DNA from: Escherichia phage SDYTW1-F1-2-2_3
Reading direction: 5' to 3' (one strand)
DNA length: 64,000 nucleotides
Sequence record: OR296290.1
Made by a program: the position numbers and the translations under genes. The notes beneath the pieces are model-generated. The model had not been told where the DNA came from. It made no database searches and saw nothing but the letters and a program-made list of their open reading frames with translations. Positions 24,971-25,080 of this stretch are shown here, piece after piece. The first letter of the stretch is position 1. Each line of letters begins with the position of its first letter.

Positions 24971-24996
24971 AAAAAAGCCCCAGCCGTAGCCGGGGC
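24971..24996 (-). terminator. intrinsic terminator
   Basis: Minus-sense GCCCCGGCUACGGCUGGGGC followed by UUUUUU. Confidence 0.6.
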
Positions 24997-25058
24997 AAAC
25001 CTGAAAGCAACACATGACCGTTGCTATAAATACACTCGCAAATGTACTTACAGCAACG

Positions 25059-25080
25059 CAAAAAGCCGCTCAAAGGCGGC
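25059..25080 (-). terminator. intrinsic terminator
   Basis: Minus-sense GCCGCcuuugaGCGGC followed by UUUUU. Confidence 0.55.

Follow-up and report, generated by a model that had tools for sequence, protein, structure and literature searches.

A conserved pair of RNA hairpins between tandem terminators in the early operon of phiEco32-like phages

Why would a phage operon place two intrinsic terminators in series ahead of a gene that it continues into, and does the stretch between them amount to more than punctuation? The question is raised by a 240-nucleotide (nt) gap on the minus strand of Escherichia phage SDYTW1-F1-2-2_3 (sequence record OR296290.1), of which we analysed a stretch of 64,000 nt, hereafter the window. 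The window comes from a phiEco32-like podophage (Kuravirus, Gordonclarkvirinae) with approximately 96% identity to SU10, phiEco32 and WFI101126, and the gap lies in its early leftward operon between the homologues of phi32_gp120 and phi32_gp117, running from the stop codon of the open reading frame (ORF) at 25605-25162 to the next gene. An earlier note on this DNA had described tandem terminators flanking a third hairpin and had offered three interpretations: a short structured RNA, an attenuator, or a regulated termination point dividing early from later leftward genes. Our comparison of related phages argues that two hairpins between the terminators, H2 and H3, are an RNA structure under selection, whose pairing compensatory mutations have preserved in three phage genera. 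The terminators themselves, T1 and T2, are ordinary ones and were previously annotated in some records. Together, these parts form the following module.

25059..25081, minus strand: T1, a predicted intrinsic terminator with a 6-bp GC-rich stem, a 6-nt loop and a run of five U residues (stem-loop 25081-25064).
25019..25058, minus strand: long form of H2, an 18-bp hairpin with a UGCG loop (-23.3 kcal/mol, z -3.7).
25025..25052, minus strand: H2 core, 12 bp with a 4-nt loop, the part of H2 that is conserved across genera.
25006..25025, minus strand: H3, a 7-bp hairpin (AGCAACG/UGUUGCU) with the hexaloop GUCAUG (-7.8 kcal/mol).
24997..25005, minus strand: single-stranded linker UUCAGGUUU, which with the last U of H3 makes up the conserved UUUCAGGU.
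24971..24996, minus strand: T2, a predicted strong intrinsic terminator with an 8-bp stem, a UACG tetraloop and six U residues (U6).

Folding of the 201-nt stretch that contains the module agreed with the stable structures proposed in the earlier note, as the minus strand reached z = -4.2, with none of 200 shuffles as stable, compared to z = -2.3 for the plus strand. The third hairpin is indeed present at 25058-25019; however, it is not the 7-bp stem with a large loop that had been described but an uninterrupted 18-bp helix, several G.U pairs included, closed by a UGCG loop. The stems of H2 and H3 are separated from each other by 0-3 nt and lie 9-10 nt upstream of T2. Small ORFs of 39-44 amino acids that overlap the hairpins do not keep their frames among relatives, NJ01 having a 1-nt insertion and SU7-type phages other frames, which upholds the earlier statement that no ORF occupies this interval.

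To assess the structure comparatively, we used 28 relatives, 23 of which carry the H2-H3 module. From ten Kuravirus-type sequences we built a covariance model, which matched all eight Suseptimavirus-type loci over their full length, at approximately 60 bits and E ~1e-12. In the latter phages, a fourth terminator-like hairpin (GGCCUU-uaac-GAGGCC followed by a U-run) occupies the position of T1, and the conserved unit is therefore a terminator, H2, H3, the linker and T2. In the model alignment (A6; 18 distinct sequences), 99.1% of pair cells were paired as opposed to 82.0% after shuffling, both sides had changed in 14 of the 31 pairs, and the covariation score was 0.487; shuffles gave 0.187, with none of 500 reaching the observed score, and slid partners no more than 0.099. 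Because this alignment was fitted to the model, pairs were also counted on ungapped alignments in which H3 and H2 were aligned separately as equal-length segments, a MAFFT alignment (A1) being used for T2 only. For H3 (A3), six of the seven pairs were changed on both sides and 97.6% of cells paired versus 66.8% in shuffles (0/500); even within the Kuravirus type, a C-G pair becomes U-A and a G.U pair becomes G-C or A-U. For the H2 core (A4), the corresponding values were 97.0% and 82.4% (0/500), with four double-changed pairs. The conserved G.U pairs, which are valid only in the minus-strand transcript, together with transitions among A-U, G.U and G-C, indicate that selection acts on the minus-strand RNA, and the structured RNA suggested by the earlier note thus gains support from covariation.

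The module can nonetheless adopt two competing folds. Kuravirus-type phages have an extra 7 nt (GCGUUGC) after T1 that permit H2 to extend to 18 bp by recruiting the 5' arm of H3 as its own 3' arm, such that H3 and the outer part of long H2 are mutually exclusive. With both terminators intact, the whole module folds to -51.0 kcal/mol with long H2 versus -43.6 kcal/mol with the H2 core plus H3, and the long-H2 fold is the minimum-energy fold in every variant. Across ten Kuravirus/Nieuwekanaalvirus sequences, 96.7% of long-H2 cells pair, with no double-sided changes and with three pairs broken in the EP335 and XT32 rows; in the same rows, what has changed in the shared arm is balanced within H3 and not within the long helix. 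The outer 6 bp of long H2 have no counterpart in SU7-type phages. As the outer pairs lack double changes, three pairs are broken and the extension is missing in the Suseptimavirus type, the evolutionarily supported structure is the H2 core plus H3, long H2 being a lineage-specific alternative.

This choice of folds also bears on the attenuator that the earlier note had considered. Long H2 versus H2 core plus H3 is the sole alternative pairing, and neither fold touches a terminator stem, which rules out a terminator/antiterminator switch; a leader peptide is likewise lacking, and the competing segment is missing in the Suseptimavirus type. A pairing between a T1 arm and an H3 arm was likewise discarded, being marginal, present in some minimum-energy folds only and not conserved. 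On these grounds we abandon attenuation of this kind.

The single-stranded parts of the module are even more constant than its stems. The H3 loop GUCAUG is identical in all 23 module sequences although the H3 stem differs at nearly every position between genera, and in the linker UUUCAGG is invariant in the same 23 sequences and is followed in all of them by G(U/C). The loop of the H2 core is UGCG, UACG or UUCG in most phages and UGAG in two (IME267 and TH42). At the 3' end, the U-rich single strand UUUCAGGUUU leads into T2 and its U6, an arrangement typical of Hfq-binding small RNAs (sRNAs). H2 was also considered as a dispersed repeat and rejected, a model of H2 alone having a single match in the window (44 bits).

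Both minus-strand terminators were located where the earlier note had placed them, by a terminator scan as well as by folding. T1 (AGCCGC-cuuuga-GCGGCU, -10.2 kcal/mol) has five G-C pairs among its six and is followed by the tail UUUUUGCG, and T2 (GCCCCGGC-uacg-GCUGGGGC, 24996-24977, -18.6 kcal/mol) has seven among its eight, with U6 at 24976-24971. Each combines a GC-rich stem of at least 5 bp, a loop of 3-8 nt and an adjoining U-run, and in both cases the U-run sits on the strand of the flanking genes, the opposite strand having none after either hairpin. T2 ranks first among terminator-like sites in scans of both 4 kb and 20 kb, and 7 such sites were observed in 4 kb versus 2.9 +/- 1.9 expected. 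The terminators are kept in every relative that has this gap. The T1 stem is unchanged in 27 of the 28 relatives, the sole exception being one 3'-arm substitution in E20-1, while its loop varies (CUUUGA, CUUUGG, CUCUGU, CUUUGU). For T2, 98.9% of alignment cells pair and one pair shows a compensatory change from G-C to U-A in SU7-type rows (4/11), alongside a loop change from UACG to UUCG; T2 is also kept in 172-1 and KBNP1711, where the interior between the terminators is swapped out. Both T1 and T2 are already marked as terminators in the GenBank record of WFI101126.

How these terminators can sit inside a continuing operon depends on where transcription and translation begin, for which the following features are needed.

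28728-28700 and 28279-28251, minus strand: nearest strong upstream sigma-70 promoters, each matching 11 of 12 consensus positions.
25162..25605, minus strand: upstream gene from the ORF list, homologue of phi32_gp120; 147 amino acids, very basic, function unknown.
24940..24957, minus strand: Shine-Dalgarno sequence (SD) AGGAGG (24957-24952) and putative CUG start (24942-24940) of the gp117 homologue, from codon-position comparison.
24532..24942, minus strand: downstream gene, homologue of phi32_gp117, a SleB-type cell-wall hydrolase (Pfam Hydrolase_2).

The two promoters correspond to SU10 early promoters (S2 Table, PMC4281155) and probably supply the transcripts arriving at T1 and T2. We found no sigma-70 site above the 9-of-12 minimum on the minus strand of 27451-22721; within the gp120-gp117 gap (25160-24921) there was no sigma-70-like site at the scan threshold, the best by eye matching 6 of 12 positions, and the gp36 element tAATGTAtA does not occur on the minus strand of the gap. 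An antisense promoter candidate (AATGTA, plus strand, 25041-25046) was rejected, as it reads AATGCA in phiEco32 and is broken in most relatives. Three terminator-like hairpins (26405, T1 and T2) thus separate the early promoters from gp117, and more follow further along the operon with no strong promoters among them. Since the SD of gp117 lies 13 nt past the U-run of T2, too short a distance to fit a promoter, expression of gp117 requires read-through of T2; since 172-1-type phages have a gene with a good SD 20 nt past T1, T1 has to be passed as well. Judged from the order of these sites, both terminators must therefore be leaky or overridden, and we infer that termination at T1 and T2 is real but partial. 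With no promoter in the gap, a discrete RNA could arise only by read-through of T1 and termination at T2, or by processing. The short structured RNA of the earlier note accordingly stands in part: a conserved structured RNA is there, but a promoter of its own was not found between gp120 and gp117. The proposed boundary between early and later leftward genes does not hold, given that the SU10 paper places coding sequences 69-125 in the early class by homology to phiEco32 (PMC4281155); both flanking genes belong to this class, and the gap does not mark a temporal boundary.

Across the 28 relatives, the gap is a mosaic with three insertion slots. Slot 0, from the gp120 stop codon to an 18-nt element described below, holds an ORF of 58-60 amino acids in WFI101126, EP335, TH38 and ev_rybdy8. 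Slot 1 is the T1-T2 interval and has four alternative contents: the hairpin region as in the window (15 phages); a longer multi-hairpin version (eight Suseptimavirus-type phages; 271 nt, z = -5.9); a hydrophobic ORF of 40 amino acids (172-1, KBNP1711 and ev_rybdy8); or nothing, with another terminator in place of T2 (ShigP1 and EcM-vB1). Slot 2, after T2, holds an adhesin with YadA anchor and collagen repeats in phiEco32, PGN6866, ShigP1 and EcM-vB1, or a helix-turn-helix (HTH) protein in 172-1 and SR02 (both by Pfam). The relatives with the ORF or with nothing in slot 1 indicate that H2-H3 is dispensable and non-essential. Of 98 matching records in the GenBank phage set, 64 span 80% or more of the 201-nt module. 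The slot-2 cassettes of phiEco32, ShigP1 and 172-1 have at their right end a diverged second copy of H2 (27 bits), directly after another GC-rich hairpin and 12 nt before the gp117 SD, a position that points to a recurrence of H2-type hairpins at module junctions after GC-rich hairpins.

Several observations on the slot contents may be recorded here. The 40-amino-acid ORF (MESAISYLGEGGFFFLCGMLFGVIITLLILMIGFMEAVSR; L004 1623-1745, L005 1598-1720 and the same slot of L093) encodes a membrane peptide of PHROG 38462 (unknown function); it has a good SD, starts 20 nt past T1 and ends 5 nt before T2, close enough for a terminating ribosome potentially to interfere with folding of the T2 stem. The coding sequence annotated as phiEco32 gp119, 'agglutinating adhesin' (L002 3133-3930; also L003, L099 and L101), has its annotated start inside the T1-T2 region. 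A better-fitting adhesin ORF starts at L002 3813, with a signal peptide, collagen repeats and a YadA anchor (Pfam); it behaves as a post-T2 insertion that carries, at the 3' end, a hairpin of its own as well as an H2-like one. The Suseptimavirus-type gap (L006 1290-1560; L007, L094 and L102-L106) contains four terminator-like and several further hairpins in approximately 270 nt, two of the extra ones bear consistent changes in TH42, and the additional ~100 nt may represent a second structured RNA.

We regard it as probable, if by no means assured, that leaky tandem terminators attenuate or punctuate the early operon and that an optional, selected structured RNA lies between them, on transcripts that read through T1 and end at T2. 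As hairpins kept by compensatory mutations across three genera are not just punctuation, H2-H3 is an undescribed phage RNA element, albeit a member of a familiar class. As to how the RNA is produced and what H2-H3 does, we infer the following. T1 and T2 would stop part of the transcription that arrives from the early promoters approximately 3 kb upstream, yielding defined, hairpin-protected 3' ends and stepped-down expression, while enough polymerase would pass T2 for gp117 to be expressed. H2-H3 would be made only on T1 read-through transcripts, many of which would end at T2, and could serve as the structured 3' terminus of the gp124-gp120 message or else yield, on trimming, a discrete RNA of approximately 90-110 nt. 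It would be optional cargo of the T1-T2 swap slot, which elsewhere carries a small membrane-peptide gene or nothing. Several points weigh against this account. The covariation rests on two to three lineages (Kuravirus, the EP335 group and Suseptimavirus), so that counting cells inflates the tally of independent events; the model alignment was fitted and the ungapped H3 and H2 alignments were registered by hand on conserved loops; T2 looks strong (8 bp, U6), making substantial passive read-through uncertain; and H2-H3 is missing in five of the 28 phages (172-1, KBNP1711, ev_rybdy8, ShigP1 and EcM-vB1).

Database searches narrowed the range of identities that the element could have. In three Rfam scans no family reached its gathering threshold, the best match being MicX with 26.6 versus 75 bits and the rest scoring at most 19.2, and no riboswitch or leader was matched. 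No homologue was found in 5,426 complete E. coli genomes. Wider sampling in IMG/VR gave only 5 loci, mostly from the same phages as in GenBank, and a search there for the terminator-flank pattern returned 76 matches, mostly unrelated generic terminators. More distant relatives sought through the gp120 protein did not extend beyond the same ~97 phages. A literature search retrieved no paper linking these phages to small RNA or boxA, the primary phiEco32 papers lying outside its reach.

Among the rival explanations, the one to which we give the most weight, while still thinking it unlikely, is a trans-acting sRNA, in which a T1-read-through transcript ending at T2 is trimmed to approximately 90-110 nt and its loop GUCAUG and linker UUUCAGGU pair with phage or host mRNAs, possibly with the help of Hfq or ProQ. 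The structured body, the U-rich single strand and the strong terminator with U6 would all suit such a molecule, as would loop and linker sequences that are conserved while the stems vary, and the weak Rfam matches are all to terminator-ending sRNAs, even if they score far under gathering. The thioredoxin-like gene contains a perfect 15-nt complement of the linker region (1101-1087, minus strand; ~0.01 expected; duplex -30.1 kcal/mol). Yet this site is fixed by coding, SU7-type phages keep only 8-9 nt of complementarity, phages without H3 still have it, and linker and site show no co-variation among relatives. A second match (an 11-mer at 53501-53511, plus strand, in a late gene) likewise encodes N-L-K-A-F, and two complements with the same coding suggest codon coincidence. 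The lack of a promoter in the gap also counts against an sRNA. The more specific proposal of an accessory, swappable regulatory sRNA between T1 and T2, with GUCAUG and the linker as interaction surfaces and thioredoxin-like or host mRNAs as targets, is slightly more doubtful still. On a par with the latter we place an mRNA processing or stability element, whereby RNase III would cut H2, or H2 and H3 would block exonucleases, separating upstream from downstream early polycistronic RNA and leaving protective hairpins. H2 is a near-perfect helix of 12-18 bp, and an H2-type hairpin always stands directly after a GC-rich hairpin at a junction, in three contexts (T1 and H2; the fourth terminator and H2 of SU7-type phages; the cassette-end hairpin and its H2 copy 12 nt before the gp117 SD in phiEco32 and 172-1). 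However, H2 has none of the internal loops typical of T7 sites, measures under two helical turns in SU7-type phages, and would leave the invariant H3 loop unexplained.

The remaining alternatives fare worse. That nascent H2-H3 acts in cis on the polymerase, in the manner of put, to carry it past T2 and later terminators, on to gp117 and the early genes beyond, is improbable: two adjacent stem-loops do lie just upstream of a strong terminator that needs to be read through, with further terminator-like hairpins downstream and no strong promoters between them, but KBNP1711, 172-1 and ev_rybdy8 lack H2-H3 in the slot and keep T2 before the next gene, and an element located downstream of 26405 and T1 cannot help polymerase pass those. 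A little less probable again is that the terminators belong to neighbouring cassettes and surround a functionless recombination remnant with incidental hairpins. The mosaic gap with its three slots, the dispensability of H2-H3 and the fact that T2 ends a small ORF in 172-1-type phages would fit such scars; a remnant would not preserve its pairing while 14 of 31 pairs change on both sides, nor hold loop and linker invariant across genera in which gp120 is only ~80% identical. Finally, we give almost no credence to a DNA-level element (a cruciform or a palindrome bound by protein) or a gene for a small protein. Inverted repeats are present and ORFs of 39 and 44 amino acids overlap the region, but read from the opposite strand the G.U pairs are C.A mismatches, folding is much poorer on the plus strand and the ORF frames are not conserved.

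The preferred reading, that of leaky terminators around an optional structured RNA, brings the locus close to several known systems without coinciding with any. Like the tandem Rho-independent terminators T1-T2 of rrnB in E. coli, T1 and T2 are two GC-rich hairpins with U-runs in series after a gene; unlike them, they lie inside a continuing operon, the next SD being 13 nt on, they enclose a conserved structured RNA, and Suseptimavirus relatives have four such hairpins in approximately 270 nt. Terminator-ending sRNAs of bacteria and phages, including those derived from 3' ends, share the structured body, the U-rich single strand, the U6 terminator and the conserved single-stranded parts, but no promoter, Rfam family or homologue in the E. 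coli genomes was found here. The put RNA of phage HK022 is a cis-acting antiterminator of two stem-loops, and H2-H3 resembles it, by description only, in being adjacent stem-loops in nascent RNA before terminators that have to be passed; it differs in being dispensable where T2 is kept and in not lying right after a promoter. RNase III sites lie between the early genes of phage T7, leaving protective hairpins, and stable hairpins are found here too at gene and module junctions in an early operon of a virulent coliphage read by host polymerase, although the helices are shorter and uninterrupted and their cleavage is putative. Further parallels are morons and, in T4-type phages, the promoter-stem-loop cassettes by which modules are shuffled; similarly, accessory genes (adhesin, HTH protein, 40-amino-acid peptide, 58-60-amino-acid ORF) swap at these hairpin or terminator junctions, with the difference that the junction hairpins have no promoter and show RNA-level compensatory change beyond DNA homology.

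The finding matters in that phiEco32-like phages serve as a model of how phages control host RNA polymerase, and as candidates for therapy, yet we know of no work on RNA-level control of their early operon. A conserved hairpin pair between terminators offers a concrete candidate, cheap to test, for a phage riboregulator or processing signal, and the gap, a natural cargo slot for adhesin, HTH-protein and membrane-peptide genes, could be useful for engineering payloads.

Turning to the flanking genes, the gp120 homologue belongs to PHROG 11641 (unknown function), has zero Pfam matches and is confined to ~97 E. coli and Shigella phages of the Gordonclarkvirinae at 96-99% identity. The gp117 homologue passes the family cutoff of PF07486 (E = 1.7e-7) and is labelled 'cell wall hydrolase' in the ShigP1 record. 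Its translation probably starts at the CUG at 24942-24940, 9 nt past the SD and 21 nt before the annotated ATG (24921), since the differences among relatives between SD and ATG all fall on third codon positions of the CUG frame, SU7-type and EP335 phages have CTT in place of the annotated ATG, and stop codons occur in frame immediately upstream.

Between gp120 and T1, two further features precede the module.

25127..25144, minus strand: 18-nt element CTTTTAGTACTATGACGC, the 3' half of which doubles as the 5' arm of hairpin H0.
25109..25134, minus strand: H0, an 8-bp hairpin (UAUGACGC-ucuuucuguc-GCGUCGUG) with no U-run after it.

The 18-nt element is located at 25144-25127, just upstream as the earlier note had indicated, and recurs without mismatch at 19101-19084, also on the minus strand; at up to three mismatches there are 3 matches versus 0.04 expected. 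It does not fit the gp36 promoter consensus tAATGTAtA (PMC8948821) and was rejected as such, nor does it match a sigma-70 promoter. The second copy (19084-19101, minus strand, with flanks at ~19020-19125) also lies approximately 25 nt past a stop codon and is followed by the similar sequence CUCUGU...CCCAAUUUG and the GC-rich hairpin GCGUAGGGAAUUCCCUCUACGC. H0 itself (-9.3 kcal/mol, z -3.8) is separated from T1 by a C-rich stretch. Its counterpart in SU7-type phages is terminator-like (GACGCUC-uucuu-GAGCGUC followed by UUUUGU) and marked as a terminator in the SU7 record.

H0 carries the boxA-like motif CGCUCUUU. boxA is the loading site of NusB/NusE, with the gamma-proteobacterial consensus GYTCTTTAANA (PMC5725501), and the copy in H0 (GCTCTTTCTGT, 25129-25119) agrees with 7 of its 10 fixed positions; with this score, and since neither KBNP1711-type phages nor the copy of the 18-nt element at 19084 retain it, it was not accepted as boxA. 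Four perfect matches do occur on the early-transcribed minus strand (28776-28766, 28668-28658, 28393-28383 and 28157-28147), in the non-coding early-promoter region, at approximately +25 and +87 from the predicted starts of both strong promoters. The count of GCTCTTTAA is 5 versus 0.69 expected and that of CGCTCTTT 9 versus 1.6 expected, and SU7, of a different genus, has four boxA copies at the corresponding place, oriented alike (L107 1931, 2166, 2303 and 2707). These placements suggest that host NusB/NusE load on early transcripts. As Nus loading mainly counters Rho, and acts on intrinsic terminators only with the phage N protein (PMC5725501), boxA alone does not explain read-through of T1 and T2; if not already reported, recruitment of Nus factors would nevertheless change how the operon's many terminators are read. 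A fifth perfect boxA (GCTCTTTAACA, 25371-25381, plus strand) lies antisense inside gp120 and, not being conserved in EcM-vB1, is probably due to chance.

Elsewhere in the window, a strong terminator (ACCCTGCC-ttcg-GGCGGGGT followed by a run of seven T) lies after a late gene on the plus strand at 40229-40296, and approximately 30 nt past it is a perfect gp36 promoter element (TAATGTATA, ~40289, plus strand).

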